This document shows positions 26,015-44,443 of a stretch of DNA of 46,919 nucleotides, one piece after another. Both the position numbers and the translations under genes were made by a program. Within the stretch, counting starts at the first letter, position 1; each line of letters begins with the position of its first letter. This DNA comes from Acidobacteriota bacterium (GTDB taxonomy: Bacteria > Acidobacteriota > Vicinamibacteria > Vicinamibacterales > UBA2999): NCBI GenBank assembly GCA_046765795.1, contig JBKPRH010000183.1, positions 1 to 46,919 of the forward strand. The letters run 5' to 3'. The notes beneath the pieces were generated by a model. The model ran no database searches. It saw only the letters and a list, made by a program, of their open reading frames with translations, and was not told the origin of the DNA.

Positions 26015-26016
26015 AC

Positions 26017-27021: not shown

Positions 27022-27028
27022 CCCGTGG

Positions 27029-28423: not shown

Positions 28424-28432
28424 ACGTCTCCT

Positions 28433-29611
28433 TTAGGTCTTCTTGCCACCAAAGATCGTCGCTGTCGTGAACAGCTTCTGCTTCCCCATGCGCTTCGTGT
28501 TGTCGTTGTCCACGAACTCGAACTCGCCATCGCGGAGCTCGAGCACGGCAACGTCCGCGATCGCGCCGGCGCGAAGCGTTCCGAGATCCTTGAACGGCGC
28601 CACGGCGCGCGCCGCGTTCGCCGTCCCCATCGCGATGACATTGCCGACTGGCAGGCCGAGGAGCAAGAACTTCGACAGCACGTTCGGAAAGTCGAACACC
28701 TGGTCGGTGCGGCCGGCGTCGGTCCAATCCGTCGAGATCGTGTCTGGCAGGAACTTCTGCTTCAAGCCACTTTCCGCCAGGGCCCAGGTGATGTGCGCGA
28801 TGCGACCGTTGCCAACGTCGAACCAGATGCCGCGTTTTCGCGCCGCGATCACTTCGGGCAGGATGCGACCGGCCTCGTCGAAGATGCCGTGCGGAGGTGG
28901 CGCGTACAGGTGCGTGACGATATCGCCAGGCTTGAGCAGCGCGAGGAGGTCCGGCAGCGGCGACACGGTATCGCCCATGTGAATCATCACCGGCAGCTTC
29001 AGCGGCGCAGTGATCGCCTGCGCCCGCCGCAGCGCCTCCATGTCGTTCTTGCCGGCCACCGTGCGCGACAGCCGCGCCTTCACGCCAACGATGAGGTCGC
29101 GATGCGCGGCGATGACTTTCTGCGCGGCGGCCACGTCAACGCGGCTGATGTCCATCAGTTCGCCGTCGGGCAAGATGCCCGTGCGCGCAACGTTCAGTAG
29201 AATGCGAACCCGATTGGGCGCGCCCTTGGCTGCGTCGATCACGTCGTCAATGCGGTCAACGCCCTGCGAGCCCGCGTCGAGCAGTGAGGTCACGCCATTT
29301 GACAGGCAGATCGACGGCATCGCTTTCGAGCGCACATGCGTGTGGATGTCGATCAGGCCGGGGACCACGAGCTTCCCGGTGGCGTCAATCATCGACGCCG
29401 CATCGGCAGCGGCCAGGTTCGCCTCGACCGCGGTGATACGTCCGCCCGCGATGCCGACATCCCGCACGCCAACCTGACGATTCGCCGGATCGAGGACCCG
29501 TCCGCCTTTGATCACCAGGTCGTACTTGGCGGCAGATAACCCTCGTACGCCGGTCAGGGCGGCGATCCCGGCAGCACCGGTTCGGTGAAGGAAGCCTCTT
29601 CGTGTTAACAC
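28433..29611 (-). CDS. Tat-exported amidohydrolase/deacetylase (dihydroorotase-like) metallohydrolase
   Basis: TRRGFL Tat motif; PGLIDIHTH, DAGS, GVK, MIH, GDIVTH, FDVGNG and PDTISTD. Confidence 0.85.
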   Translation of the reverse strand: MLTRRGFLHRTGAAGIAALTGVRGLSAAKYDLVIKGGRVLDPANRQVGVRDVGIAGGRITAVEANLAAADAASMIDATGKLVVPGLIDIHTHVRSKAMPSICLSNGVTSLLDAGSQGVDRIDDVIDAAKGAPNRVRILLNVARTGILPDGELMDISRVDVAAAQKVIAAHRDLIVGVKARLSRTVAGKNDMEALRRAQAITAPLKLPVMIHMGDTVSPLPDLLALLKPGDIVTHLYAPPPHGIFDEAGRILPEVIAARKRGIWFDVGNGRIAHITWALAESGLKQKFLPDTISTDWTDAGRTDQVFDFPNVLSKFLLLGLPVGNVIAMGTANAARAVAPFKDLGTLRAGAIADVAVLELRDGEFEFVDNDNTKRMGKQKLFTTATIFGGKKT

Positions 29612-29618
29612 CCGCGAA

Positions 29619-30173
29619 TTATCCTCCGATGACGCCCTGAATGTGCGCGGTCAGCAGGGCCATGGCTTCACGCTCTCTCTCGCCCGCCGTTTTGTCCACG
29701 ATCACCTGAAGCCGGGCGATCTCGCTGCGGACGAACTCGTGCTCAAGGAGATGCAGGCGCGTCGAATAAATCGCCGCTTCGAGCACGGCGTGACACGCGC
29801 GGTTGAAACCGATGAACTCGCGCCGGAAGCCCCGATGCACGACGCTCGTCTCGATGCGCGACCGCGGCGGCGTCGAATCCACGGTCCGCACCTCGAGCTC
29901 GCGCCACGAACAGCAATCCGCCAGCACGACACCTCGGACAATCTTCGCCGGCACCGTGGCATAGATCGGGTTCGAGATCGCTGCCTGCGCAAACACCCGC
30001 ACATCGTCAGTGAGATTGACGATCGCACTGCGCACGGCAGTGACGTTGCGATAGGTCGCTGTATCGAGGAACGGCTTGAGGACAATGACCTCGTCACCCC
30101 ACTCGACACCCATCGGCGCACAGTTGATACGGCCGTCCTCGGCGACGGTAGTGACGATGCTTTCGATGATCAC
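29619..30173 (-). CDS. DUF447 family protein (associated with H4MPT gene clusters)
   Basis: IIESIVTT...NCAPMG, KPF..T.TY.N and FIGFNRA.HAVLEAAI..TRL. GTG start at 30173. Confidence 0.82.
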   Translation of the reverse strand: MIIESIVTTVAEDGRINCAPMGVEWGDEVIVLKPFLDTATYRNVTAVRSAIVNLTDDVRVFAQAAISNPIYATVPAKIVRGVVLADCCSWRELEVRTVDSTPPRSRIETSVVHRGFRREFIGFNRACHAVLEAAIYSTRLHLLEHEFVRSEIARLQVIVDKTAGEREREAMALLTAHIQGVIGG

Positions 30174-30182
30174 GCGGGCCCC

Positions 30183-30284
30183 GCACCGACACGCGTCAGC
30201 CGGATTGCACCGACACGGCCGGTCCCAAGGACCGGCCCTACCTCGCACCGACCGCGAACGCCCGATTGCACCGACACGCGTCAG
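30183..30284. repeat. GTAGGGCC REP (family C, 30217-30241) within four GCACCGAC-containing direct repeats
   Basis: Minus strand GTAGGGCCGGTCCTTGGGACCGGCC; gcaccgacacgcgtcag at 30183 and 30268; gattgcaccgacacg at 30203 and 30264. Confidence 0.8.
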
Positions 30285-30976
30285 TCTCGATTGGGCGGCG
30301 GCACGAACGGCCGCCACCGCATGTCTTCAGACGGCGTCCACGGCAGAAAGAGCTCTCGTGCCGTCATGGCGCCGTCGGCGTGTCGCGGCAGCGTGTCGAT
30401 GCGCGCGCGGTCGCCGTCGAGAAATCGCGCCACCATCGCATAGCCGTGCTCGGTGGCTGCCGACTCGGGATGGAATTGCACCCCAATCACGGGATGCTCG
30501 CGGTGCTCGAAGGCCATCACCGCGCCATCGTCATTTGATGTGGCCATCACGCGCAAGTCTGACGGCATCGTACCGGGCGCGATCACCAGCGAATGATAAC
30601 GGGCGACGCGTAGCGGCGACGGAAGTCCGGCGAAGATCCCGGAGCTGTCATGCGTGATGAGCGATGTCTTGCCGTGCATGGGATAACCGGCACGCACCAC
30701 GTCGCCACCGTAGGCCGCGCCGATGCATTGGTGACCCAGACAGACGCCGAGGATCGGCGTTGTCGGACCGAAGCGGCGAACGACCTCCGTGGAGATGCCG
30801 GCCTCTGAGGGCGTGCACGGACCCGGTGAGATCACGATGTGACTCGGCCCGAGCTTCTCGACCTCGTCGATGCCCATCTCGTCGCTGCGGCGGATCACCA
30901 CCTCGCGGCCCAGCTCACGGACGTAACGGGCGAGGTTGTAGACGAACGAGTCTCGATTGTCGAGAACCAGAATCAT
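30281..30976 (-). CDS. pabA: Aminodeoxychorismate synthase glutamine amidotransferase subunit
   Basis: ILVLDNRDSFVYNL, SPGPC, GVCLGHQ, HGK, RYHSL and GVQFHPES. Confidence 0.88.
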   Translation of the reverse strand: MILVLDNRDSFVYNLARYVRELGREVVIRRSDEMGIDEVEKLGPSHIVISPGPCTPSEAGISTEVVRRFGPTTPILGVCLGHQCIGAAYGGDVVRAGYPMHGKTSLITHDSSGIFAGLPSPLRVARYHSLVIAPGTMPSDLRVMATSNDDGAVMAFEHREHPVIGVQFHPESAATEHGYAMVARFLDGDRARIDTLPRHADGAMTARELFLPWTPSEDMRWRPFVPPPNRD

Positions 30977-31134
30977 TGTTGAATTACTGATTGTTGATTG
31001 GTGATTTGTTGTTGATTGGTGATTTGGGATCGTTGATTGAGCGCGGCAACCAGCTGGTGGGGCGTCGTCAATCAACGAATCGGAGAATCGGCAATCAACA
31101 ACTATTCAACAATCAAAGATCCCTGAATCATCAA
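30975..31134. repeat. Inverted pair of heptamer tandem arrays (GTTGATT-like / AATCAAC-like)
   Basis: Left arm gttgattggtgatt repeats, right arm aatcaac/aatcggc repeats; fills the pabB-pabA spacer. Confidence 0.8.
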
Positions 31135-32579
31135 TGGGCCGCGGCGAGGGCATCGATCAGCGCCCTGGCCTTGTCAATAGTCTCGCGATATTCCTGTTCG
31201 GGATCGGAATCCGCGACGATTCCGCCTCCTGCACTGAAGTATACGCGGCCGTCGCGGACGATCGCGGTGCGGATGGCGATGCTGGTATCGAGATCACCAG
31301 TCAGGCTGAAGTAGCCGATCGAGCCGCAGTAGATGCTTCGCTGAGACGGTTCGAGCTCGGCGATGATTTCCATCGCGCGCAGCTTCGGCGCGCCGGTAAT
31401 CGAGCCGCCAGGAAACGCCGCGCGCAGCAGATGGAACGCATCGTAACCGGGCTCCAGCTGGCCGACGACGGTCGAGACCAGATGATGGACGGTGGCATAG
31501 CGCTCGAGCGAGAAGAGTTCGGACACCCGCACGGTGCCAGGCGCACAGACGCGCGAGAGGTCGTTGCGCATCAGGTCGACAATCATCAGGTTCTCGGCGC
31601 GATCTTTGGCGCTCTCGGCAAGCGCCTGGCCCAGCGCCGCATCGTGCTCGGGGCCGACACCGCGCGGCCGCGTGCCCTTGATCGGACGCGTCTCGACAAA
31701 GCCACTGCGAGTCACGTGAAGAAAACGCTCGGGCGACGCGCTGATCACGCTCGCATCGGGCGTCTCGAGAAACGCCGCAAACGGCGCGGCGTTGCGCCGG
31801 CGCAGCCGCGAGTAAAACTCCCACGGTGACCCGGGCAGCGGCGCCTCAAACCGTTGCGACAGATTCGCCTGAAAGATGTCGCCGGCGAAGATGTAATCGC
31901 GCACGCGCTGCACGGCGGCGAGATAGTCGCCGTGGGTGAACGAGGAACGCAGCTCGTACGAGGGATTCCACCAGCCCCCTTCGACAACATGCGATGGTGC
32001 AAAAGTCCGCTCCGATCGAGGCCCGTCCAACAGGACGGGCCCTACTCCAGACGTGTCCGGCGCCGCCTGCAGCCGTTCGCGGACGTCGGTCGCGCGTGCG
32101 CGGGCTCGAGCGGCGCGATCGGCTCCAGCTTCAGCAGGCATGCCCGTCGAGATCAGCCATGCACGCGACTCGACGTGATCCCACGCGAGCACCCAGTCAT
32201 AGAGGCCCATCACGACATCGGGCAGCGCGATGTCGTCGTACCGCGGGGCGGGCAGACGTTCGAGTGTCAACCCCCAGTCGTACGCAATGTAGCCAGCGGC
32301 TCCACCCTGAAAGGGTGGAAGTCCGGCGATCGGTTCGGTGTGGAACGGCGCCAGCCGCGTACGCACCTCGTCCAGTGTGCCACTCGATCCTTTGCGTTCG
32401 ATGACATCGATCGGATCGGCAGTGAGAAACGAATATCGTCCGAGCCTGGTGGTCGTTGATGCGCTATCGAGGAAGAGGCGATACGGCAGTCCCGCGAGTT
32501 GCTCGCAGCACCACGCCGGGTCAGGCACCGGCGACAATTCTTGGACGAGCGGCGTCACGCGAGTCTCACTCGCCGACAT
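31131..32579 (-). CDS. pabB: Aminodeoxychorismate synthase component I
   Basis: FLDS, GRYS, PFQGGAAGYIAYD, SASPERF, TRPIKGT (PabB-type PIKGT), AENLMIVDLMRNDL and FPGGSITGAPK. Confidence 0.9.
   Translation of the reverse strand: MSASETRVTPLVQELSPVPDPAWCCEQLAGLPYRLFLDSASTTTRLGRYSFLTADPIDVIERKGSSGTLDEVRTRLAPFHTEPIAGLPPFQGGAAGYIAYDWGLTLERLPAPRYDDIALPDVVMGLYDWVLAWDHVESRAWLISTGMPAEAGADRAARARARATDVRERLQAAPDTSGVGPVLLDGPRSERTFAPSHVVEGGWWNPSYELRSSFTHGDYLAAVQRVRDYIFAGDIFQANLSQRFEAPLPGSPWEFYSRLRRRNAAPFAAFLETPDASVISASPERFLHVTRSGFVETRPIKGTRPRGVGPEHDAALGQALAESAKDRAENLMIVDLMRNDLSRVCAPGTVRVSELFSLERYATVHHLVSTVVGQLEPGYDAFHLLRAAFPGGSITGAPKLRAMEIIAELEPSQRSIYCGSIGYFSLTGDLDTSIAIRTAIVRDGRVYFSAGGGIVADSDPEQEYRETIDKARALIDALAAAH
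32020..32045 (-). repeat. Family C GTAG REP in frame in pabB (reads VGPVLLDGP)
   Basis: Minus strand GTAGGGCCCGTCCTGTTGGACGGGCC: GTAG foot plus a perfect stem. Confidence 0.78.
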
Positions 32580-32585
32580 CGTGAA

Positions 32586-32617
32586 AACCACTCACCACCA
32601 ACCACTCACCACCAACC
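32586..32617. repeat. 14-bp (2x heptamer) tandem repeat AACCACTCACCACC
   Basis: Two exact copies plus a partial third, in the spacer upstream of pabB. Confidence 0.75.
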
Positions 32618-32619
32618 GA

Positions 32620-34086
32620 TCAGTCGGACGCGCGCGGCCGCCGTGGCCGTTGTGTCAACTGCACGTGCTCGCGCACGTCCTCGTCCGGTGGTGTGAGGTA
32701 GCCCCACGTCAAGGCACCTTCCTGACGATACGTCTTGCCGAGTGTCACCGCGAGGCTCGCTTTCGCGAGTTCCTTCCCGAGGTAAAACGCGTGCGACGGA
32801 TCCTCCACCTCGAGCTGCGCGAAGATCGCCTGGATGTCGGTCCCGCGCACGAAGCGCTCACTGTTGAAGACGGTAATGGCCTCGGCGTCGGCGAAGATGC
32901 GGTAGTTGGGATCGGTAATTGCCGACTGCAATGCGCGGAGTTCCTGCTCCGAGTAACTGAGCACCACAGGATCCTTCACGGTGACGAGACGATCGTCGAC
33001 GCCTTTGGGCACCGTGTGCTTCGTCACCGCGTAGTGCATCAACCGCCTGGCCACATCCACCTCTCGGACGACGCCTCGCGCCCACGGAATCACTTCCGTC
33101 GTCAGCACACGGCGAATGCCCAGTTCCTGGCACACGGCGATCAGCAGTGCGTTCACGCCTGTCGAATCTGCGGCTGTCAGTTCCGTCAGATTCCCGATGC
33201 CCATCAACATCTCCGCCGCCGGCCATCGCCGCCGGGCTTCGGCGTAGCGCTCGAGCGAAGCCATGAATCCCATCCCGATTGGCTCGAGGATCGGATCGAT
33301 CAGGAACGGCACACCCCAGGCCTGCAGCTTGGCCACCGTGGGCTCGATCGAATCCACTCCACCGCCCATGTCGGGAATCACGACGAAGCGAGCGCCGCTG
33401 ACGGCGAGGGCGCCGCTGACGGCGAGGGCCTGCGCAACGTCAATGTTGGAGCCGTTGACGCTGAGGACGAGCTCGGCACCCGCTTCAACTGCCGTTGTGA
33501 TCTCGCTCGGGTCGAGCGAGTCCACGCTCACGCGCATTCCAGCCTCGACCAGCTCGGTCACTACATCGGCAAGTTCGGGGAACGGGAGTCCCGGTGTACA
33601 GCCGATGTCGATGATGTCGGCGCCGGAGTCCCGGTAACGCGCGGCCTCGCGTCGAATGGCCTCGCGTGTCAGGCGAGGGGCGTTGTTGATCTCGGCAACG
33701 ATCTCGATATCCCATGCACCGTACTCGCGCGCTTCCGCTGCGCGTCCGAAGTATCGGGGGATATCGCGCAGATCCTTCGGCCCCTTCTCCACTGCCACGC
33801 CAAGCTTCTCGGCCACGACAGCTGTGTGGCCTTCACACAAGCCGGGAATCATCACGAGGTCGACGCCAGGTGGCGCTTCAAGTGATTTGGCGATCCACGA
33901 CGTGGTCATGAGCGCGGCGACCGTGATCTTGAGGACGGCGACGTCGTACTGAAACGGCGGAGACATCTCGGCGAGCACGCGCCGGAGCGCGGGCTCGGCG
34001 AGCTTGCCGGTTACGAAAAGAGTGCGACCGGCCGGTCGCGCCGAAGCCTCTGGCGAAGGCGGACCGGCCCTACCTGCATCCGTCAT
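32620..34086 (-). CDS. Dihydropteroate synthase-like protein of H4MPT clusters (DUF6513 / Orf20 type)
   Basis: FVTGKLAEPAL, VAALMT, KGPKDLRDIP, GADIIDIGC, SVDS, DPILEPIG and GIGNLTEL..ADS.GVN. Confidence 0.85.
   Translation of the reverse strand: MTDAGRAGPPSPEASARPAGRTLFVTGKLAEPALRRVLAEMSPPFQYDVAVLKITVAALMTTSWIAKSLEAPPGVDLVMIPGLCEGHTAVVAEKLGVAVEKGPKDLRDIPRYFGRAAEAREYGAWDIEIVAEINNAPRLTREAIRREAARYRDSGADIIDIGCTPGLPFPELADVVTELVEAGMRVSVDSLDPSEITTAVEAGAELVLSVNGSNIDVAQALAVSGALAVSGARFVVIPDMGGGVDSIEPTVAKLQAWGVPFLIDPILEPIGMGFMASLERYAEARRRWPAAEMLMGIGNLTELTAADSTGVNALLIAVCQELGIRRVLTTEVIPWARGVVREVDVARRLMHYAVTKHTVPKGVDDRLVTVKDPVVLSYSEQELRALQSAITDPNYRIFADAEAITVFNSERFVRGTDIQAIFAQLEVEDPSHAFYLGKELAKASLAVTLGKTYRQEGALTWGYLTPPDEDVREHVQLTQRPRRPRASD
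34030..34073 (-). repeat. Nested repeat: family C REP with a family D element in its loop, in frame at the N-terminus of the DHPS-like gene
   Basis: Minus strand GTAGGGCCGGT-CCGCCTTCGCCAGAGGCTTCGGCGCG-ACCGGCC; compare the intact copy at 30217. Confidence 0.78.
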
Positions 34087-34448
34087 CCGCGTGGATCGCC
34101 GCTACGCACCCACTTGTTCGGCGTTCCCTCGAGCGCCTCACCTTCCTTCGGCCGCCACAGCACGACGTCTTCGATCTTCCGCGCCAACGAGAAGTCCTTG
34201 TCGGTGATGCCGCCGGCGCTGTGCGTCGAGAGCTTCACCGTGATGCGTCCCCACGTCACCGAGAGGTCCGGATGGTGGTACGCAGCCTCGGACAGATACC
34301 CGATCGAGTTCACCAGCATCAGCGTCGTCGGCCATCCGTCTGTTTTGTAGACGCGGCGGATCCAGCCGTCTTCGAGGTACCAGCCGGGCAGCTCCTTCAG
34401 CTTCTCGGTGATCTGTGCTTCGTCGTATGTCGGTTCTTTCTTGGCCAT
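34083..34448 (-). CDS. pcbD: Pterin-4-alpha-carbinolamine dehydratase
   Basis: EAAYHHPDL, THSAGGITDKDF.LA..IE; ATGA overlap with the DHPS-like gene. Confidence 0.88.
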   Translation of the reverse strand: MAKKEPTYDEAQITEKLKELPGWYLEDGWIRRVYKTDGWPTTLMLVNSIGYLSEAAYHHPDLSVTWGRITVKLSTHSAGGITDKDFSLARKIEDVVLWRPKEGEALEGTPNKWVRSGDPRG

Positions 34449-34464
34449 ATGTCGGTCTTTCTGC

Positions 34465-35718
34465 TCAGGACGTCGTGGGTTTCTTGATACCGCTCCACTC
34501 CACCGGAATGGCGAGCGGTGCGCCGCCATACTCAGCAGTGTAGGCGTAGAGAAACTGGATCGTCTTGCGCCCGAACGCCATGCCGACCTGACGAAGCGGA
34601 TGAAATCGTCCCAGCACGGACGCCACGGCGTTCAATGCGCTGATCAGCCGCGCGACGACTTGATGAAAGACGATCACGCCGGCGTGATGCCGCGTGTTCA
34701 GGCCCAGGACGCGCGCCGTGTCGTCGCCGACCATTGCGCGTACGAAAATCGGCGCCAGCGGCGCGAGCACGCGCAGGCGAAGGACGTGGTCCTGCACAAA
34801 GCAAACGAGGCGATCGGTGAGAAACGCACCGTCTTCGCTGGGCCCCCATTGCCGGCGTTTGATCTGCTCGAGCAGATAGACGGCATCTTCAACCGTCTGT
34901 GGCATGAGCTCGCGACGCACCCCCAGATATGCGCCGACGACATTCCAGGTGTGCAGAAAGTCGAGATGATCGTCCTCGCGCACGGGCACGCCGAACCGTG
35001 ACATCGCCAGCGGAAGGATGTAGCTGAAGGTCAGCAGCGTGAACGCGAGATCTTCCTGATTCAGTGGCTGGCCATCATCAGCCACGCTCCACGTGAAGCC
35101 CGCCCTGGCCATGGCCTCGCCAATCGATCGCGACACCTTACTCTGGGCACTCCCGTACCCCTCATCCGGCGTCGCATCTTGTGGTGCCTGGCCGAGCAGC
35201 ACTAAGTGACGAATCGCCGCGTGGATCAATCGCACACGCTGCGCTTGGACGATCCCTGGGCCGCCCCGATCCAGACCGTGCGGTCCCATGACCGCGAGCA
35301 CCATCAATGCGGTCTGATGCAACCGTCGATCGACGTGCGCGCCCAGCTGTCGCGTCAAGGCGAGGATGCGCACGCCGCGGCGCATCGTGTAGCACTCGGG
35401 CAAACTGGCGCAGACGAGCGCCATCATCGATGCGAGACCGTGACGGACGAAGAAGTGTTCGGCACGGCGCAGATGCATGTCCTGCACCCACTCGGGCCGG
35501 ACGCTTGTCCGGTCGACGAACGCGCGAATCTCCGGCGGCAAGTTGTCGGGAAGAGCGGCGGCTCCCGAAAGGCTGCTGACGAAGGCGCTCAGTTCCGAAA
35601 ACTGGCGTCGTTCGAAGACCTGACGCACCACCTCGTCGGCCTCGGGATCGCCGACGGCGCGCATCTGGTCCAGATACGCGTCGGTCCACAGCGCACGCGG
35701 CGTTGACGCAGTCTCCAA
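34465..35718 (-). CDS. Lcp/MpaB-family (DUF2236) heme oxygenase, no signal peptide
   Basis: GDPEAD, SLPECY, RRLHQTA, VRLIHAAIR, PLNQEDLAFTL.TFS and HTW.VVG.YLGV. Confidence 0.82.
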   Translation of the reverse strand: METASTPRALWTDAYLDQMRAVGDPEADEVVRQVFERRQFSELSAFVSSLSGAAALPDNLPPEIRAFVDRTSVRPEWVQDMHLRRAEHFFVRHGLASMMALVCASLPECYTMRRGVRILALTRQLGAHVDRRLHQTALMVLAVMGPHGLDRGGPGIVQAQRVRLIHAAIRHLVLLGQAPQDATPDEGYGSAQSKVSRSIGEAMARAGFTWSVADDGQPLNQEDLAFTLLTFSYILPLAMSRFGVPVREDDHLDFLHTWNVVGAYLGVRRELMPQTVEDAVYLLEQIKRRQWGPSEDGAFLTDRLVCFVQDHVLRLRVLAPLAPIFVRAMVGDDTARVLGLNTRHHAGVIVFHQVVARLISALNAVASVLGRFHPLRQVGMAFGRKTIQFLYAYTAEYGGAPLAIPVEWSGIKKPTTS

Positions 35719-35722
35719 GCTT

Positions 35723-35737
35723 GTAATGCTACATTAC
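35723..35737. promoter_or_regulatory. Perfect palindrome in the 27-bp divergent spacer (candidate operator or overlapping -10 boxes)
   Basis: GTAATG-CTA-CATTAC; contains TACATT on plus and TAGCAT on minus, 10 and 7 nt before the two start codons. Confidence 0.5.
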
Positions 35738-35745
35738 GCGACACC

Positions 35746-36489
35746 ATGGCGGCCTTCCTCTACAGCCTCGAGCACGACCTCTCTCCCACTCTGCTGGTGA
35801 TTGCCGCCGTCATGTTCCTGGCCTGGACGGCGGCCTATCTGCAGATCGTGCGGCAGTGCCATCGCGACCAGACGTACGGCATCCCACTGGTCGTGATCTT
35901 TTTCAATATCGCCTGGGAGTTCATCTTCTCGTTTCAGCTCGTCGCGCCCGGTGTGCCGGTACTGGTCTGGGGAAACCGTCTGTGGTTCTTTGCCGACGTC
36001 ATCATCGTGTCGCAGGTGCTGATGTACGGACGGAACGCGCAGACGCATCCGTGGGTCAAGCAGCACTTTCATCTCATTTGTGGCGTCGGAATACTGCTGT
36101 GCGGGCTGGCGCTGTTCTTCTTCTCGAAGTACACCGGCGACGTCTACGGCCTGGCCTCGTCGTTCATGATCAACTTCGCGATGAGCGTGTTGTTCATCAA
36201 CCTGCTGTTCTCACGTCCGGATCTGCGCGGCCTGCCGGCGGGAGCGGGCTGGATGAAGATGATTGGCACTGCGGCTGGAGCGGTCTTCTGCTATCTGTGG
36301 TGGCCGACACAGTTCGATACCAATGGCGTGCTGATTCGACCGCCGTACGTGATGAGAGCCACCGACTTCCGGTTCCTCTACTTCATGTTTCTGACGATTC
36401 CGGTGATCGACTGCCTCTACATCTATCTGTATCACCAGCAGCGCAAGGCACTGGTAACCGCGGCCCCCAAGGAGCCGGTTAGTACCTGA
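35746..36489 (+). CDS. Pyr4/PaxB-like integral membrane terpene cyclase
   Basis: About 7 TM helices; W..AY......RD.TYG.P......N.AWEF motif and C-terminal D..YI. Confidence 0.75.
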   Translation: MAAFLYSLEHDLSPTLLVIAAVMFLAWTAAYLQIVRQCHRDQTYGIPLVVIFFNIAWEFIFSFQLVAPGVPVLVWGNRLWFFADVIIVSQVLMYGRNAQTHPWVKQHFHLICGVGILLCGLALFFFSKYTGDVYGLASSFMINFAMSVLFINLLFSRPDLRGLPAGAGWMKMIGTAAGAVFCYLWWPTQFDTNGVLIRPPYVMRATDFRFLYFMFLTIPVIDCLYIYLYHQQRKALVTAAPKEPVST

Positions 36490-36513
36490 CCTTTGACCTT
36501 TGACCTATCGAGA

Positions 36514-38982
36514 TCACCACGATGTCGTGACGTGCGCGAGCACGCGGCGACCGAGCAGATCACCGCCGAACATCTCGTAGTGCTCGTTGTCGAACAGATT
36601 CGACGCATCGACGCCGGCACGCACGCGCTTCGTGATCAGATAGGCGGCCTGCACGTCGGTCAGACCGTACGCCGGAACCGGACCGGCATAGATACCTGAC
36701 AGCCAATCGAACCCATCCGTCCACCGATAGCGGACGCTCGCGTCGAGCCGAGGCGCGACGTAGGAGAGCGCAAACGACGCCTGATGCCGCGGCGTGTTAG
36801 GAAGGATCGGCACGTCAGGGGCCTGCAGCGTGAGGTCGTAATCGAACAGCGTGTAGTTCACGTCGACACGAAAGCGCTCGGGCAGCGACGTGGTGACCCC
36901 CACTTCGAGCCCTTGCGTGCGCGCCTTCCCAAAGTTGCCGTTCGACAGCAGCGCGAACGCCGGCGAGCCGTCCTCGAGATTACTCAACGACGCGCCGAAC
37001 CCGGGCGGAAGAATGGCGTTCAGCGTCGCCTGCAACGCGGCCGCGACCGCGGGGCTCACACCTGCCGGCGGACGATACGGCCCGTAATCCGGATTGAGAC
37101 GTCCGAGACTGGTACCGACCTGCGGCAGCAGTCCGCTCGTGAAGGTCTCGAGGTGATTCAGGAAGTACGTGACGCCGACCAGCGTTCGGCGCGCAATGAG
37201 ACCGCTGTATCCGACGTCGAGGCCGGTGACCTGTTCGACCTCCAGGTGAGGATTGCCAACCGCCAGCACCGGAATATGCTCGAAGCCGAGTCTGACGCCG
37301 CCAAGCGCCGGTGCGAACGCCTGCTCGATCGCAGAGAGATCCAGCGGCGGCGCGACCGCAGCCTGAAGCCGCGTCTCCGCGATCGTCGGCGCCTTGAACG
37401 CGCGGGCCACGGACACTCGCAGCGTGTGCGAGGGCGCCAGACCGACGATCACCGCGCCACGCGGTGAGAACGTCGCGTCATACAGGCTGCTGACTTCGAC
37501 CCGCGCGGCGCCTGACACCTTGACGCGATCGGTGAACGCGTAGTCGGTCTGTCCGAATACCGCGCCATCGTTGACGATTTGTGCCTCGGGCCAGATCGTC
37601 TCGACACCGGCCGGGTTCTTCGAATCGGCTTTCAGTCGCCCGATCGAGAGCCCACCGAAAAATCGGCCTTTCCCGCGGCTGAACGACCCCTGCGTGTCCG
37701 CGCTCGTCTGCAGCAGGTAGCCGTTGTCGTACGAGCCCACACCGGACGACAAGCCCAGCGAGTTGTTCAGATCCTCAGCGCTGAGCGCGCTGCTCACCCG
37801 CCACCGCGGCGTCGTGAACTGTCCTCGCGCCCACGGCTGATTCATCCCCTCGGTTTGATAGCGTCCAAGGTTGGTGGTGGAGACGTGCCCCTCGCTGTGC
37901 GACGCGCCTCCCTCGACGACGAGCAGCGAGCCACTCGCCAACGGCCGATCGACGCGGGCGGAGCCATAGAACAGGCTGACGTGATCCTGTGCGAGCGGTA
38001 CGACCTCGCGAGGCAACCCTTCGTACTCGACCGACGTGACACGAGACCGTGCGAAGTCGCCACTGTGCTGCGCCCCGCCCATGACTCGAAAATAGGTGCT
38101 TGCTCCGAGTTTCCCGGCATGACGGCCGTCGAACCGGCTGGTCCCCAGCTCACCGGCGGTGATCCGCGCCTGACCACCTGGGTTTCCAATCGCCGACTTC
38201 GTCTTGATGCTCATGACGCCGTTGAACGCACCCGCTCCATACAGCGCACTGCCGGCGCCGCGGACGAATTCGAACGAGTCGATCTCGTCGAGCGCAAACG
38301 ACACACCGGCCCAATTCGTGACGCCCATCACCGCAATCTGCGAGGTGTCACGGTCGTCCACGAACGTCCGCACGCGACGATTGGACATGTCGTTGAATCC
38401 GCGCGCGTTGACATTGAAGTCGTAGAGACCGCTTTGGACCACATTCACGCCCGGCGCATACGCGACCAGGCGCGGGACTTGACCCTGTGCCGCCAAACGG
38501 CGCACCTCGTCGGCATCGAGATGCGTGACCGGCGCCGGCGCATCGACGGCACGTTCGACCTGCCGCGACGCGGCTTCGACGACGAAGCTCTCGACGAATG
38601 ACAGCGGCCACTCAACCTTCGTCACAACTGTGGCCGCGGCCAGCGCGGTCACCGTCACCATCGACGTCGTTGAATAGTTGGCGAGCGTGAAGATCAGGGT
38701 GTAGGTGCCCGGCCGAACATTGGAGAAGACGTAGTCGCCACCGGTCGATGTCCACTCGGCAGCGCCGGTCTCCTGAATCACGACTTGCACTCCGGCCAGC
38801 GGCGTCTCGTCGTCTAGCCGACTGACGTGACCGGTTATTCGCCCAGTGTTTTGTCCAGCCGCGACGCCTGGCACGAGGAGCAGCACACACGCAGCCAGTG
38901 GCAGCAAACGTCGCCAGATCCGGCTATAGCCGGACAGTACGATTCTCATCAGGATTCGATTCTTGTCGGGATTCGTGTGCAC
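36514..38982 (-). CDS. TonB-dependent receptor with N-terminal carboxypeptidase-regulatory-like domain (start may be 38949)
   Basis: Signal peptide; plug motifs (APGV, NARGF, EFVRGAGSALYGAGAFNGV), NPHLEVE, NLFD and C-terminal Trp. Confidence 0.9.
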   Translation of the reverse strand: MHTNPDKNRILMRIVLSGYSRIWRRLLPLAACVLLLVPGVAAGQNTGRITGHVSRLDDETPLAGVQVVIQETGAAEWTSTGGDYVFSNVRPGTYTLIFTLANYSTTSMVTVTALAAATVVTKVEWPLSFVESFVVEAASRQVERAVDAPAPVTHLDADEVRRLAAQGQVPRLVAYAPGVNVVQSGLYDFNVNARGFNDMSNRRVRTFVDDRDTSQIAVMGVTNWAGVSFALDEIDSFEFVRGAGSALYGAGAFNGVMSIKTKSAIGNPGGQARITAGELGTSRFDGRHAGKLGASTYFRVMGGAQHSGDFARSRVTSVEYEGLPREVVPLAQDHVSLFYGSARVDRPLASGSLLVVEGGASHSEGHVSTTNLGRYQTEGMNQPWARGQFTTPRWRVSSALSAEDLNNSLGLSSGVGSYDNGYLLQTSADTQGSFSRGKGRFFGGLSIGRLKADSKNPAGVETIWPEAQIVNDGAVFGQTDYAFTDRVKVSGAARVEVSSLYDATFSPRGAVIVGLAPSHTLRVSVARAFKAPTIAETRLQAAVAPPLDLSAIEQAFAPALGGVRLGFEHIPVLAVGNPHLEVEQVTGLDVGYSGLIARRTLVGVTYFLNHLETFTSGLLPQVGTSLGRLNPDYGPYRPPAGVSPAVAAALQATLNAILPPGFGASLSNLEDGSPAFALLSNGNFGKARTQGLEVGVTTSLPERFRVDVNYTLFDYDLTLQAPDVPILPNTPRHQASFALSYVAPRLDASVRYRWTDGFDWLSGIYAGPVPAYGLTDVQAAYLITKRVRAGVDASNLFDNEHYEMFGGDLLGRRVLAHVTTSW

Positions 38983-39844
38983 GCCAGTGCAGGAGACCTA
39001 CGACAGCCGCCGCCACGGGAATGCCCATCGCAACGGCGGCGATCGGTCGTGTCCCGGGAGGATAGCCCGCAAAAGTGAAGAACACCCACCATCCGGAGTA
39101 CGCGAGCAGCGGATAGGCCGCTGCCAACGTCGTGACCCGCGCTGGTGGCGAACCGGCGATCCGCCGATGCGTCGCCCTGAACAGCCAGGAGATCGTGAAT
39201 GCGACCAGCATCCACCCGGCAAAGCCGCGGAATTGTTCGCCGAAGTAGTTGCCCGGATTGATCATGACCCAGGCGCCAATCTTGCGAACCATGAAGGGAT
39301 CGAGAGCCAAATCGTAGGCGGTGACGATGCCGGCACCTATGATCGCGATCAAGATTCCCTGACCACCAGGCACGACGGCGACCGGGCGCCACTCCACCAT
39401 CAAGTTCGCCAGCACGTACGACAGATACACAATGACGTACCACGCCAGCGGAATGATGTAGGGCACAGCGAAGAGACGCGGACCAAAGACGTCCGTGTAG
39501 TAGTACGGCCCGAACGGAAACCCGGTCCGAATCGACAGCGCTTCGAAGAAGAACCCGAGGACCACACCGAAGATCACGAATGCGGCCGTCGCGCGTGCGC
39601 CCATGAGGAGAATGCTGCTGCACACGCAGAACACCGTCATGAGAACGGTGACCGAGACCCAGAACGCCTGATATCCGGTCAGTAGATGGTGAGCGTGGAT
39701 CGCGAAGGCACTGAGGAGGGCCACACCACACGCGGCGTGTAGCGCCGTGACAGATCCGGGTCGGGTCACAGGTTCGTGGTCCGTATGGCCTGAAGCGGTG
39801 CGAGCTGCCACCAGCCTCCGAAAAAACATTCGCGGCCGCGACAA
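38924..39844 (-). CDS. CruF-like carotenoid/isoprenoid hydratase family (DUF422) membrane protein
   Basis: E.L.I.TGFPFGPY.Y...GP.L..VP..IP.AW, DLALDP, W....G.YFG and F.GW. Confidence 0.8.
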   Translation of the reverse strand: MSRPRMFFRRLVAARTASGHTDHEPVTRPGSVTALHAACGVALLSAFAIHAHHLLTGYQAFWVSVTVLMTVFCVCSSILLMGARATAAFVIFGVVLGFFFEALSIRTGFPFGPYYYTDVFGPRLFAVPYIIPLAWYVIVYLSYVLANLMVEWRPVAVVPGGQGILIAIIGAGIVTAYDLALDPFMVRKIGAWVMINPGNYFGEQFRGFAGWMLVAFTISWLFRATHRRIAGSPPARVTTLAAAYPLLAYSGWWVFFTFAGYPPGTRPIAAVAMGIPVAAAVVGLLHWRAHESRQESNPDENRTVRL

Positions 39845-39884
39845 CGGAGCGGCCGGCGTATTTCACGAACGGCGTACCACGAGA

Positions 39885-42161
39885 TCACTTTCCTGACTCT
39901 ATTTGCTCCACAAGTGCCTGGAAACGCGGGTCATCCCGAACGGGTGCCAGCAGTGGCATAAGTCTATACGCAACGCAGTGTCCGGCGCGCTCTTCGACGC
40001 CTTTCTGATACCACGCAATCGCCTCGTCCATGTCTCCGAGGCCTTGATAGATCTGACCGATGCACGCCGCTGATACATACCCGGTCACGCGGCGAGCTTT
40101 CAGCTGCTCGGCAATCGCCAGCGCTTCGTCGACCCGGCCGGCCTTGGCGCGCGCCCACCCCGCGTAGCCTTCGAGCGCGGCATCGCCGTATGAGTACGCA
40201 CGGCCACGGTCGAAGACCTCGATCGCCTCTTCGAACTGCCCCTTTGCCGCTTTTGCCAGTCCCAGATGCCAATAGGCGGAGAAGAAGGTCGGGTCGAACG
40301 CGATGATGCGTTCCGACTCGATGATCATCTCGTCGTAGCGCTCGAGGATGTAGAGCGTATCGACAACCGCGCGCTGCGCGACGAGCGACAACGGATCCAC
40401 TTCGATTGCACGCTTCGCCTCGGCGAGCGATTCCTCTCCACGTCCAAGCGTGCTGAGCAGCGATGCGTAGAGCAGTCTGGCATTCGCGTCGCCAGGACTC
40501 AGCTCGATGGCCTTGCGGTACGAGGCTTCGGCACCGTCGAAGTCCCAGTCGTACCAATGGCGAACCATTCCGAGCGCCACGTAGCCATCGGCCACGCCAT
40601 CGTCGAGGGCGACAGCACGTTCGGCAGCCGCCTTGGCGCGCGGCATGATCGCGCTCGGCAATTCCTGCGAGAACAGACTCTGCAGAATGTAGGCCTGGGC
40701 GAGACCCGCATACGGATCGGCGTATGTCGGTTCCAGCTCGATCGCCCGCTTGAAGCTCTCGACGCCCCTGGCCAGCGCATCCCAGGTCAGCTTGAAGGAC
40801 GAGTGACGGCCTTTCAGATATTGGCTGTACGCCTCGAATGAGCGGGGCAGACGCCGATTCCGCGGCTCGTACTGGCTCGACCATGTGCTGCCCGACCTGC
40901 TCGACGCGTGTGCCGCCGGCGCAAAGCTGCTCTTCAGGCGCGCCACGATGGACTGCGCGATTTCGTCCTGCACTTTGAAGATGTCGTCGAGCTCACGATC
41001 GTACCGCTCCGACCAGATCTGAAAGCCATCCGCAACGTTGGTGAGTTGCACCGTGATCCGCAGGCGAGACCCTGCCCGCCGCACGCTGCCCTCGAGCACT
41101 GTGCCCACCTTCAAACGCCGGCCGATATCGGTGACGTCGGCAGCCCCATCGCGGAACTGGAATGACGACATGCGTGAAGCGACGCGCACGTGCTTCAAGG
41201 TCATGAGCGCGGCAATCAGTTCGTCGGCGATGCCATCGCAGAAGTAATCCTGATCCCGGGCCGGATTCAGATCGGCAAACGGCAGCACCGCGATCGACGG
41301 AAGTGCCGCCAGCGCGGACGCGGGCGCGCCGACCGTGACATCCGCGGCGAGCGCGTTCAGGAGCTCGCCTCCGTTGGCGAATCGATCTTCCGGCGCCTTC
41401 GCGAGGCAGCGCATGACGATCGATCGCAGCGCGGCCGGAATGGTCTCGGACATCGGCGACGGCTCGTCGCGCACCGTTGCCGTCGCGGCGTCGAAGGCAT
41501 TCACTCCCTGGAACGGCCGCCGGCCGGTCAGCATCTCGTACAACAGACGGCCGAACGAGAACACGTCGGTACGCGCGTCGATTGGTTCACCGAGGAACTG
41601 CTCTGGCGCCGCGTAGCCGGTTGTCCCCACGAACGAACCGACACGCGTCTGGGCCGCGGTGACCGCATCCTCGATGCGGCCGGCCGTTGCGACCTTCGCG
41701 AGTCCGAAATCGAGAATCTTGATCGCACCGCCGCCGGTGATCATCACGTTCCCCGGCTTCAGATCGCGATGGACAATGCCGTGGGCATGAGCGACGGCGA
41801 GAGCGCCGGCAATCTGCTTGGCGTAGGCGTGCGCAGTCTCCATGCGCAGCGGCAAGCCACCGAGCGTCTCCGCGAGTGTGCGGCCCTCGAGGAACTCCAT
41901 CACCAGAAACGGCGTGTCCGCATCGGTGCCGATGTCGAAGAGGGTGCAGATGTTCGGATGGTTCAATGCGGCGATGGCTTTTGCTTCGACGTCGAACCGC
42001 TCATGCAACGCCGGCGCGCCGTCGGGCGCGCGCAGGACTTTGATCGCCACGCGGCGGTTCAGCCGGGTATCGAGTGCTCGATACACTTCGCCCATGCCGC
42101 CGCGACCGACCTGCGCAACGATTTCGTACGGCCCCAGCCGGCGCCCAGCGGACAGCGTCAC
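39885..42161 (-). CDS. Hanks-type Ser/Thr kinase with TolB-like and TPR domains
   Basis: GRGGMGEVY, VAIK, HRDLKPGN, DFG and APE; SIAVLPF..DG..DEL..VLEGSVR; TPR helices. GTG start overlaps the SDR stop. Confidence 0.92.
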   Translation of the reverse strand: MTLSAGRRLGPYEIVAQVGRGGMGEVYRALDTRLNRRVAIKVLRAPDGAPALHERFDVEAKAIAALNHPNICTLFDIGTDADTPFLVMEFLEGRTLAETLGGLPLRMETAHAYAKQIAGALAVAHAHGIVHRDLKPGNVMITGGGAIKILDFGLAKVATAGRIEDAVTAAQTRVGSFVGTTGYAAPEQFLGEPIDARTDVFSFGRLLYEMLTGRRPFQGVNAFDAATATVRDEPSPMSETIPAALRSIVMRCLAKAPEDRFANGGELLNALAADVTVGAPASALAALPSIAVLPFADLNPARDQDYFCDGIADELIAALMTLKHVRVASRMSSFQFRDGAADVTDIGRRLKVGTVLEGSVRRAGSRLRITVQLTNVADGFQIWSERYDRELDDIFKVQDEIAQSIVARLKSSFAPAAHASSRSGSTWSSQYEPRNRRLPRSFEAYSQYLKGRHSSFKLTWDALARGVESFKRAIELEPTYADPYAGLAQAYILQSLFSQELPSAIMPRAKAAAERAVALDDGVADGYVALGMVRHWYDWDFDGAEASYRKAIELSPGDANARLLYASLLSTLGRGEESLAEAKRAIEVDPLSLVAQRAVVDTLYILERYDEMIIESERIIAFDPTFFSAYWHLGLAKAAKGQFEEAIEVFDRGRAYSYGDAALEGYAGWARAKAGRVDEALAIAEQLKARRVTGYVSAACIGQIYQGLGDMDEAIAWYQKGVEERAGHCVAYRLMPLLAPVRDDPRFQALVEQIESGK

Positions 42162-42928
42162 ATCACCACCCCACCACCAACGAGAATAGCCTGCCCGGTG
42201 ATGAATGCCGCTGCAGGCGATGCGAGAAAAATCGCAGCGCCTGCCACGTCGTCCGGTGTGCCCCACCGTTCGAGCGGCGTCGCCTCGGCAATCGCGCGAT
42301 GACGTTTCGCATCGAGGCCTTCACCAAATGATGTTTCGATCCAACCGGGCGCGATCACGTTCACTCGCACGCGCGGCGCGAGCGATCTCGCGAGCGATTT
42401 GCTGAACGCGAGGACGCCGCCTTTCACCGCTGCGAACATCTGCGGGTTGGTACCGGCCATGCCACTGAGGACGTGATCCCAACTCATGTTGATGATCACG
42501 CCGCCGTGCTCTTGTGCCGCGAGCACTTCAGCAGCGCACCACGACGCATGAATCGTCCCGCGCAGGTCCACCGCGAGCAGCAGATCGAGCCGTTGCGAAT
42601 CGGAGAGCGATGCGGCAGGTCCGGTGAGGATGTCGGCTCCCGCGTTGTTGACCCAGGCATCGACGCGCCCGAGCGCATTGCGGACAGCTGGTCCGAGCGA
42701 GCGGAGCGACGCGTCGTTGGAAACGTCGAGCCTGATGACAGCGGCGCGCCGGCCGAGTGTGGTGATCTCCTGCTCGACTTCGCGCGCGCCCGCCTCGTTG
42801 GTCCGGTAGGTGAACGCGACATCCGCGCCGGCTCGAGCCGCGGCGAGGGCGATGGCTTTGCCGATACCGCTCGATGCGCCGGTCACGAACATCGTGCGCC
42901 CGGCCAACGACTGGGAGGCCTCCGTCAT
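42158..42928 (-). CDS. Short-chain dehydrogenase/reductase with Phe in place of the catalytic Tyr
   Basis: TGASSGIG, NNAG, FAAVK at the YxxxK position and RVNVIAPGWIET. Confidence 0.88.
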   Translation of the reverse strand: MTEASQSLAGRTMFVTGASSGIGKAIALAAARAGADVAFTYRTNEAGAREVEQEITTLGRRAAVIRLDVSNDASLRSLGPAVRNALGRVDAWVNNAGADILTGPAASLSDSQRLDLLLAVDLRGTIHASWCAAEVLAAQEHGGVIINMSWDHVLSGMAGTNPQMFAAVKGGVLAFSKSLARSLAPRVRVNVIAPGWIETSFGEGLDAKRHRAIAEATPLERWGTPDDVAGAAIFLASPAAAFITGQAILVGGGVVM

Positions 42929-43902: not shown

Positions 43903-44397
43903 TTACGGCGGACGCCAATCGATCAGCGCATCCCGCAATTCTTCTGGACTGAATCTCGACGATCCCGAGAAAGGGTACGTAGCACCCTCGGCAACGAGCC
44001 CCGCTCTGAATGGGTTATTGAGGATGTATCGCACGATGCCGACCACGGGATCGTGTTCCCGTACGACGTGGTCGTAGTAGCCCTCTTGCCACAGACGCGT
44101 AACTGCTCGTTGCTTCCACGCGAATGCCGTCTCCTGCTTCCAGTCATGCATAACCGCCTTTAGATCGGCGTCATTTGCGAGGCCCTCAAGCAGGAGATGA
44201 ACGTGGTCGGGCATCACACAGTACGCAATTACCGCAAACGGCCTCACTTCGAAGAATTGCGTAATCTGCCCCGTCATCCAGGTCGCCGCCGGTTCGCCTT
44301 CGAAGCACTTCTGCCGTCGATTGGTGCAAATCGTCAGGAAATACAGGTACGCGCCGATGTAAGAGAAGCCAGTTAGCCGTTTTGGACGATTCGCCAT
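43903..44397 (-). CDS. rayT: REP-associated tyrosine transposase (RAYT / TnpA-REP, HUH Y1 family)
   Basis: YFLTICT, VMPDHVH (HUH), WQEGYYDHVVR, YILNNP..AGLV and YPFS; flanked by inverted GTAG REPs. Confidence 0.9.
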   Translation of the reverse strand: MANRPKRLTGFSYIGAYLYFLTICTNRRQKCFEGEPAATWMTGQITQFFEVRPFAVIAYCVMPDHVHLLLEGLANDADLKAVMHDWKQETAFAWKQRAVTRLWQEGYYDHVVREHDPVVGIVRYILNNPFRAGLVAEGATYPFSGSSRFSPEELRDALIDWRPP

Positions 44398-44443
44398 ACC
44401 CGGTGAGTCGTCCAAACGCGACGCCAAGGCAGGTCTGATTCAA

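Follow-up and report, generated by a model that had tools for sequence, protein, structure and literature searches.

A cassette of five genes occupies positions 34465-42266 of the window, the 46,919-nucleotide stretch analysed here, which is the whole of contig C183 in an acidobacterial genome of 6.54 Mb (509 contigs, 94% complete). It encodes a haem oxygenase of the Lcp/MpaB type, a Pyr4-type terpene-cyclase homologue, a TonB-dependent receptor, a CruF-like membrane protein and a Ser/Thr kinase, and it is bounded by synteny breakpoints, the five-gene limits being set by flanks that change from locus to locus. The cassette is an accessory element of soil Vicinamibacterales-like Acidobacteria and not a biosynthetic cluster. 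The explanation that best accommodates the findings is the uptake-linked processing of an alkene-bearing, probably isoprenoid, compound in a manner wired to the kinase; this reading is held tentatively, at somewhat less than an even chance.

The kinase gene, the CruF-family gene and the receptor gene lie on one strand; the Pyr4-type gene is convergent with the receptor gene, and the Lcp/MpaB-type gene is divergent from the Pyr4-type gene. The oxygenase (DUF2236; PF09995), a protein of 417 amino acids (aa), is encoded at 34465-35718 on the minus strand and starts at TTG 35718. The seven-helix transmembrane cyclase homologue (247 aa; PF25129) is encoded at 35746-36489 on the plus strand and starts at ATG 35746, leaving a divergent intergenic region of 27 bp (35719-35745) in which a -10-like box can be read. 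After a further 24 bp comes the end of the receptor gene (36514-38949, minus strand; Plug, TonB_dep_Rec_b-barrel and an N-terminal CarboxypepD_reg), whose open reading frame (ORF) of 822 aa extends to GTG 38982. The integral membrane protein of the CruF superfamily (306 aa; PF04240) is encoded at 38924-39844, minus strand, and its stop codon, TAG 38926-38924, lies inside the receptor ORF, giving an overlap of 59 bp counted from GTG 38982 or 26 bp from ATG 38949. The ATG is likely to be the true receptor start, as it would open a typical signal peptide; the CruF-like protein may likewise begin at an ATG 15 bp downstream of its TTG. The last member, a Hanks-type Ser/Thr kinase of 793 aa (39885-42266, minus strand; Pkinase E 8e-51, plus TPR families), overlaps the neighbouring SDR gene as annotated, and its start has probably been placed too far upstream. 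An earlier, sequence-only reading of this DNA had described four adjacent genes, the 27-bp head-to-head gap and the CruF/receptor overlap, all of which are in the sequence, and its four family assignments agree with Pfam matches that exceed the curated cut-offs for the oxygenase, cyclase, receptor and CruF-like protein alike. Its module of four was too small: the four genes are indeed conserved, but it had overlooked both the kinase gene as a fifth conserved member and the signalling genes around the oxygenase-cyclase pair.

Conservation of this arrangement was examined in 89 loci, 80 of them retrieved from metagenomes with a profile of 24 cyclase homologues and nine from a sample of 401 genomes of the phylum. 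The loci were searched by tblastn with the window proteins and sorted by the identity of their cyclase to that of the window. Clade A, in which this identity is at least 58%, contains 14 loci, L002, L011 and L021 being near-identical to the window. The oxygenase gene is divergent and upstream of the cyclase gene in 14 of 14; the receptor gene is convergent and downstream in all nine loci with at least 300 bp of flank; the CruF-like gene is present in all four with at least 2.9 kb of flank, and the TPR Ser/Thr kinase gene in all three with at least 4 kb. There is a single cyclase gene in clade A, with the receptor, the CruF-family gene and the transmembrane TPR kinase as fixed members. The full five-gene block is found again at 46-57% identity, with other flanks, in two genomes of another genus (L098 and L099), the CruF-like gene of L099 being split over two frames. 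The flanks consist of a pterin-cofactor operon and an SDR gene in the window and include an FMN dehydrogenase in L014; in L098, one end of the cassette adjoins QueC and DUF411, and the opposite end a cupredoxin and a di-haem oxidoreductase. When the window was compared with its close relatives L011 and L002, for which synonymous divergence (dS) is unsaturated, the ratio of nonsynonymous to synonymous divergence (dN/dS) was 0.04-0.20 for all five genes, values that point to purifying selection on every one of them. Because the order is kept at 46-67% identity with changed flanks and dN/dS is low, the order of the cassette is more than chance. Synteny in other genomes had been named beforehand as a test of the sequence-only reading, and the genes do stay together in clade A and in L098 and L099.

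The 27-bp gap holds a conserved element. TACATT is found at 35730-35735, and TACA[CT]T occupies the same place in 15 of the 16 clade-A sequences compared (the window plus 15 loci); L098 has TAGACT. The element may be regarded as a conserved -10-like box and a candidate promoter. The TACATT of the window ends 10 nt before the cyclase ATG and would give a nearly leaderless mRNA. A simple scan of the gap gave no sigma-70 match, and simple promoter and terminator scans gave nothing above shuffled sequence.

The association of cyclase and receptor extends beyond clade A. In clade B (8 loci, 37-44% identity), the receptor gene is directly upstream of the cyclase gene on the same strand in five of the eight, and L100 is arranged likewise. 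In L005 and L100 the oxygenase gene is also nearby, L100 adding a 1,400-aa nucleotide-cyclase/AAA_16 protein and a TPR kinase. Two further proteins, P0091 and P0092, are single ORF calls of 917 and 923 aa in which an N-terminal Pyr4 domain is joined through a signal-peptide-like stretch, with a signal-peptidase-like site, to Plug and barrel domains; each could be either a true polyprotein or the product of a missed stop or start. The receptor part of these fused ORFs shares only the plug with the window receptor (34% over 135 residues) and belongs to a different lineage. Thus, the cyclase-receptor link recurs in three arrangements, convergent, receptor-then-cyclase operon and fused ORF calls, which are independent of one another and make it stronger than the adjacency first remarked upon. 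For comparison, the background density is 34 Plug and 53 Pkinase matches in 6.54 Mb. In a quick tree of 75 rows, from which rows with matches of less than 170 residues or with internal stops had been dropped, the two fused proteins group with clade A, L005 and L026, and also with L023 and L027, which show no receptor, making 19 rows in all (Shimodaira-Hasegawa-like approximate likelihood-ratio support 86). This group stands apart from a 52-row clade without these partners and from a long-branch group (L006 and L008-L010) in which the oxygenase is present and a neighbouring receptor is not. The 63 loci of clade C have mixed neighbours, among them GNAT proteins, histidine kinases, alpha-2-macroglobulin (three loci), one UbiA and one cis-prenyltransferase. 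Clade B also has a 705-aa protein encoded between cyclase and oxygenase on the oxygenase strand (L100:10470-12587, minus strand; L026:10472-11086), for which neither Pfam nor the ESM Atlas gave a match.

The cyclase homologue matches the Pyr4-TMTC family (PF25129) with E 1.7e-18 and 67.6 bits (cut-off 27), and its AlphaFold2 (AF2) model is compact, with seven long helices and a predicted local distance difference test score (pLDDT) of 94.4. Residues W27, Y31, W57, E58, W80, D84, N143, K171, D222 and Y225 are invariant in the 24 homologues, and N54 is nearly so. E58 and D222 lie in the stretches NIAWEF and IDCLY, in which the sequence-only reading had placed its candidates for the catalytic Glu and Asp of the family; both stretches are present, and both acids are invariant (24/24) within the N-x2-W-E and D-x2-Y spacing of membrane terpene cyclases. 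The corresponding residues of Pyr4 we take to be E63 and D218. Among membrane terpene cyclases, the study of DmtA1 (PMC6173783, Yao et al. 2018) gives W29, Y33, N56, W59, E60, D214 and Y217 as conserved and reports from mutagenesis that E60, W29, W59 and Y33 are required. The spacing of W27/Y31/N54/W57/E58/D222/Y225 in the window protein is that of DmtA1, a comparison made by motif spacing and not by direct alignment. According to the same work, an extra acid, D94 in DmtA1 and D96 in MacJ, marks members that protonate a plain olefin (PMC6173783). The invariant D84 of the window protein may be the counterpart of this acid and would then fit with the absence of an epoxidase gene. No epoxidase, polyprenyl synthase or UbiA prenyltransferase was found when the larger non-overlapping ORFs of the window (46.9 kb) and the syntenic loci were scanned, in agreement with the earlier view that this is no standard meroterpenoid cluster.

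The oxygenase matches MPAB_Lcp_cat (PF09995) with E 5e-14 and 53.4 bits (cut-off 23). It aligns over residues 21-341 with the rubber oxygenase LcpK30 (5O1L/5O1M; E ~1e-15, 23% identical), and in this alignment R132/T136/H166/R170 line up with R164/T168/H198/R202 of LcpK30. These residues include the haem positions that had been proposed on the strength of the motifs RRLHQTA and VRLIHAAIR, both of which are present. All 12 homologues compared have R132, R163, H166 and R170, and 10 of the 12 have T136. According to a review (PMC6311187), the proximal haem ligand of LcpK30 is H198, which is essential, as is R164, while T168 is nearly so. The AF2 model (pLDDT 82) has a predicted Lcp-like fold, with Foldseek matches to 5O1L/5O1M at E 1.5e-10 and TM-scores of 0.62-0.69; the second-best match is t-anethole oxygenase (8S1J; E 0.027). 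The oxygenase shows neither a signal peptide nor a strong transmembrane segment and is probably cytoplasmic; it is not a rubber oxygenase Lcp in the strict sense, having no secretion signal and a Gln at the distal Lys167. A search of the other cyclase loci with an oxygenase hidden Markov model gave no further copies.

The receptor has a signal peptide, plug and 22-strand barrel domains and a C-terminal aromatic residue; it stays below the cut-off of every substrate-specific NCBIfam model (best 122 bits vs 645), and the FRAP and NPNL motifs, which we take to be those of haem receptors, are absent. The CruF-like protein matches Caroten_synth (PF04240) with E 7.2e-29 and 101.6 bits (cut-off 25) and is the sole PF04240 match in the genome. 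Used as a query, it finds matches in 24 of the 401 phylum genomes and none in the other carriers of the oxygenase-cyclase pair. The kinase (Pkinase, 173 bits) has one predicted transmembrane segment at about residues 310-328, followed by a TPR-rich C-terminal half; in L012, L014, L098 and L099, the corresponding position is taken by orthologues at 50-64% identity.

These features can be assembled into a model for uptake-linked processing. In this model, each step of which is suggested by the chemistry of the families, the TonB receptor would carry the compound across the outer membrane. At the inner membrane, the Pyr4-type enzyme, using its Glu/Asp pair and D84, would protonate a carbon-carbon double bond and cyclise the chain with no need for an epoxidase, and the CruF-family enzyme would add water to a terminal double bond. 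The cytoplasmic haem-b oxygenase would use O2 to cleave a double bond to carbonyl products, and the transmembrane TPR Ser/Thr kinase would control the process or read it out.

Several points weigh against this model. The evidence consists of families, residues, gene order, selection and linkage; substrate, activity and import are proposals drawn from family chemistry. TonB receptors usually take hydrophilic or chelated cargo, not lipids. A catabolic route would call for an inner-membrane transporter, an aldehyde dehydrogenase and beta-oxidation genes, and the cassette has none of these. D84 of the cyclase, invariant in 24 of 24 homologues, is no more than a candidate counterpart of D94 of DmtA1, and the Pyr4-type model resembles seven-helix transporters. 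In the oxygenase, K167 of LcpK30 is replaced by Q135 and E148, a further distal residue, by Gly; moreover, t-anethole oxygenase, whose alkene substrate is not an isoprenoid, has the same Lcp fold. The CruF-like protein scores below all three NCBIfam CruF equivalogs (86 vs 154.7, 72 vs 400 and 47 vs 300 bits), and of the six relatives examined, the nearest lie beside STAND-type cyclases or kinases, not beside carotenoid genes. The "CruF hydratase" of the sequence-only reading is therefore supported no further than membership of the PF04240 superfamily. Finally, STAS fusions of the oxygenase domain and the presence of the pair inside partner-switching and kinase operons in other clades are more in keeping with sensing than with metabolism.

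This last point leads to the strongest of the rivals, endogenous lipid signalling, which is a distinct possibility although an unlikely one. It supposes that the substrate of the oxygenase-cyclase pair is a membrane isoprenoid of housekeeping metabolism, be it squalene, a polyprenol or a quinone tail, and that an O2-dependent product or the haem state is read by the kinase, nucleotide cyclase and partner-switching proteins, the receptor and the CruF-like gene being lineage-specific additions and not suppliers of substrate. In all 11 loci with several kb of flank, which represent four lineages (window/L011, L012, L014, L098, L099, L005, L100, L006, L008, L009 and L010), a kinase-domain gene is found in the same gene string as the pair, a count to be set beside the background of 53 Pkinase matches per 6.54 Mb; in several of these, the kinase is a kinase/AAA_16 giant. 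However, these genomes are rich in kinase genes, and the carriers are relatives of one another. In L006, an operon runs from DUF6272 through oxygenase and cyclase to a kinase/AAA/GAF/SpoIIE protein, with GGDEF and SiaC genes adjoining, and the 1,400-aa nucleotide-cyclase/AAA_16 protein lies near the pair in both L005 and L100. Among the best 120 of 249 profile matches, P0193 and P0213 have STAS domains fused to the DUF2236 oxygenase domain, which hints that the haem domain may be able to act as a sensor in partner-switching systems. The relatives of the CruF-like gene also adjoin signalling giants: the closest, in L092, is accompanied by a second CruF-like paralogue and adjoins a nucleotide-cyclase/AAA_16 giant, and that of L094 adjoins both a kinase/AAA_16 giant and a CarboxypepD_reg outer-membrane barrel. 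A relative from the same phylum, L097, lies within a true carotenoid cluster. On the other hand, the receptor link takes three arrangements and involves two receptor lineages, which would hardly be expected of a bystander.

The lipid genes of the genome bear on the same alternative. The only matches to SQS_PSY (PF00494) are a tandem pair by an amine oxidase gene (G000 contig C95:18149-21290; L091:6149-9290), which we take to be squalene genes of the HpnC/D/E type. The genome would thus make squalene precursors, and its squalene-hopene cyclase matches are weak only (25.7 bits, or 38.1 summed, in a 737-aa frame), as the endogenous alternative would have it. The HpnC/D-like genes are equally common without the cassette, however, the tandem pair being present in five of five carriers and four of five non-carrier family-mates; there is no correlation, and squalene as the specific substrate is unsupported. 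No separate phytoene synthase was found in this genome (94% complete), and for this reason the substrate is unlikely to be a home-made carotenoid.

Two observations on the CruF superfamily may be added. In L092, L093 and L094, genes of the superfamily occur in tandem, divergently or fused, by 1,300-1,400-aa nucleotide-cyclase or kinase AAA_16 proteins and with no carotenoid genes nearby. DUF6989, encoded upstream of the L005 receptor, was considered as a distant CruF relative and rejected, the resemblance amounting to one 18-residue BLASTP segment with a pairwise E of 0.017.

Uptake and signalling can also be combined into what would be a new chemical sense. In this speculative version, the receptor would admit an external alkene or isoprenoid, for example an apocarotenoid-like or prenylated molecule of plant or fungal origin in the rhizosphere, for the enzymes to convert. 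It is similarly a long shot that the TPR kinase, or in sister clades the nucleotide-cyclase/STAND proteins, would read the conversion or its O2 dependence. If this were true, enzymes not known outside natural-product and carotenoid metabolism would form the front end of a signalling pathway.

It is improbable, but not to be neglected, that the cassette serves the uptake of a compound that is not an isoprenoid. The Pyr4-like protein would then be an inner-membrane permease for the cargo of the receptor, and the haem protein would be a sensor or an oxygenase of other alkenes, such as a plant phenylpropene, as the t-anethole oxygenase match of its fold might suggest. The best structural neighbours of the Pyr4-like model are indeed seven-helix transporters and receptors: the KDEL receptor (Z 11.3), SWEET (11.1 and 9.5) and the PQ-loop protein cystinosin (9.0 and 8.2), over 188-199 residues, with Z at 6.6 or below beyond these and Foldseek values of E 0.01 and TM ~0.5. 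No solved structure of the Pyr4 family was found in the PDB as searched, and for helical bundles a Z below ~13 may reflect a common arrangement only. There is no other inner-membrane transporter in the cassette, and two assemblies give a single ORF call for a Pyr4 domain plus a receptor. Nevertheless, the residue pattern that mutagenesis showed to be needed for cyclisation in DmtA1 is kept with exact spacing, and three families whose characterised members all act on isoprenoid double bonds would be unlikely to meet in one cassette by coincidence. The absence of the FRAP and NPNL motifs from the receptor likewise speaks against this alternative.

That related carriers have merely inherited a gene order without shared function is very unlikely. 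In its favour, every complete cassette belongs to a single family-level clade, simple scans gave no promoter or terminator above chance that would define an operon, and the cyclase is on the opposite strand. Against it, neither flank is shared between the window, L014 and L098, the five genes remain together at dS above 1, and the pairings recur rearranged in clade B, the long-branch clade and the fused ORF calls. A role as a defence system was rejected, since none of the oxygenase, cyclase, receptor and CruF-like proteins matched a PADLOC model, the only matches being generic ones to the kinase domain.

DNA near-identical to the window (0.42-0.51 of sampled words) is present in 15 runs, one of them possibly the source sample, from at least 12 studies; the runs are labelled soil or rhizosphere metagenome or carry no label. 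Cyclase homologues occur in 10 of 194 genomes of the same family (G000 counted), in 6 of 105 among the high-quality ones and in 9 of the 401 sampled phylum genomes, a patchiness expected for accessory genes. Contigs from four RNA-labelled runs include short pieces that fall on the cassette, such as 252 nt at 35181-35430 in X17; such contigs cannot show transcription, DNA may have been carried over, and the uncovered parts prove nothing.

Other features of the window lie outside the cassette. Directly downstream of the oxygenase gene is the pterin-cofactor gene string (24995-34529, minus strand), which encodes a pterin-4a-carbinolamine dehydratase (PCD), a DUF6513/dihydropteroate-synthase-like protein (TIGR00284), PabB- and PabA-like proteins, DUF447, two amidohydrolases and a member of the beta-ribofuranosylaminobenzene-5'-phosphate synthase (beta-RFAP synthase) family; judged by these genes, it looks like a methanopterin-type cofactor pathway in an acidobacterium. 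The string was rejected as part of the cassette, as it follows the oxygenase only in the near-identical L002 and L011 and is replaced in L013, L014 and L098. An IS200-like (Y1_Tnp) transposase gene lies at 43903-44427 (minus strand), 1.6 kb past the kinase end of the cassette. A 1,481-aa ORF at 18485-22930 (plus strand) has a PEGA domain as its only Pfam match and sits in a region of unusual composition (GC 0.69 and AT skew 0.43 at 20001-22000).

To our knowledge, Pyr4-type cyclases have been described only as late steps of meroterpenoid or triterpenoid biosynthesis. The known roles of DUF2236 oxygenases are in the degradation of rubber, the synthesis of mycophenolic acid and the cleavage of anethole, and that of CruF is in carotenoid tailoring. 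Here, one member of each of these three families is found in a fixed, selected block together with an outer-membrane importer and a receptor kinase, with no biosynthetic genes, and the hosts are abundant, little-studied soil Acidobacteria. Should the receptor deliver the substrate, the cassette would exemplify the acquisition of an isoprenoid-type compound by a TonB-dependent route; should the kinase report on the reaction, the cassette would amount to a sensor based on lipid chemistry. The candidate catalytic residues can be named: E58, D84 and D222 of the cyclase and R132 and H166 of the oxygenase.

Each of the enzymes can be compared with systems already described. The literature searches gave no description of this gene combination; the supplementary list of 1,107 homologues in the survey discussed below may include these genes. 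The oxygenase shares the DUF2236 domain, the R/T/H haem residues and the Lcp fold with LcpK30 (5O1L/5O1M), with fungal MpaB/MpaB' and with t-anethole oxygenase (8S1J). It differs from LcpK30 in being only 23% identical, in lacking the secretion signal of the extracellular Lcp and in having Gln for the distal Lys167, and a pairing with a membrane cyclase is not reported for Lcp, MpaB or t-anethole oxygenase in the papers examined (among them PMC6311187). The CruF-like protein is, like the CruF hydratases (the gamma-carotene 1'-hydroxylase of cyanobacteria and Deinococcus and the haloarchaeal bisanhydrobacterioruberin hydratase), a PF04240 membrane protein, but it falls far below the equivalog cut-offs and has no carotenoid genes nearby. 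The cyclase homologue resembles the bacterial Pyr4-like cyclases XiaH (xiamycin), TylF (tolypodiol), GroF, ZigF (zigralone) and DmtA1 (drimentines) in Pfam family, seven-helix build and the W/Y/N-W-E/D-x2-Y set (PMC13307353, PMC6173783), and like DmtA1 and ZigF it could start from a plain olefin. In contrast to the clusters of those five enzymes, the window has no polyprenyl synthase, prenyltransferase, cytochrome P450 or flavin-containing monooxygenase (P450/FMO) or scaffold gene nearby, the partners of its cyclase being instead the haem oxygenase, the TonB receptor, the CruF-like protein and the kinase. The survey of Kakumu and Helfrich (2026) kept 264 of 1,107 bacterial Pyr4-like homologues, those with terpenoid genes nearby, and set aside 843 (PMC13307353); as only homologues near terpenoid genes were kept, loci like this one would have been filtered out. 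With the cassette, the large "orphan" fraction of bacterial Pyr4-like genes is given a concrete role that can be tested.

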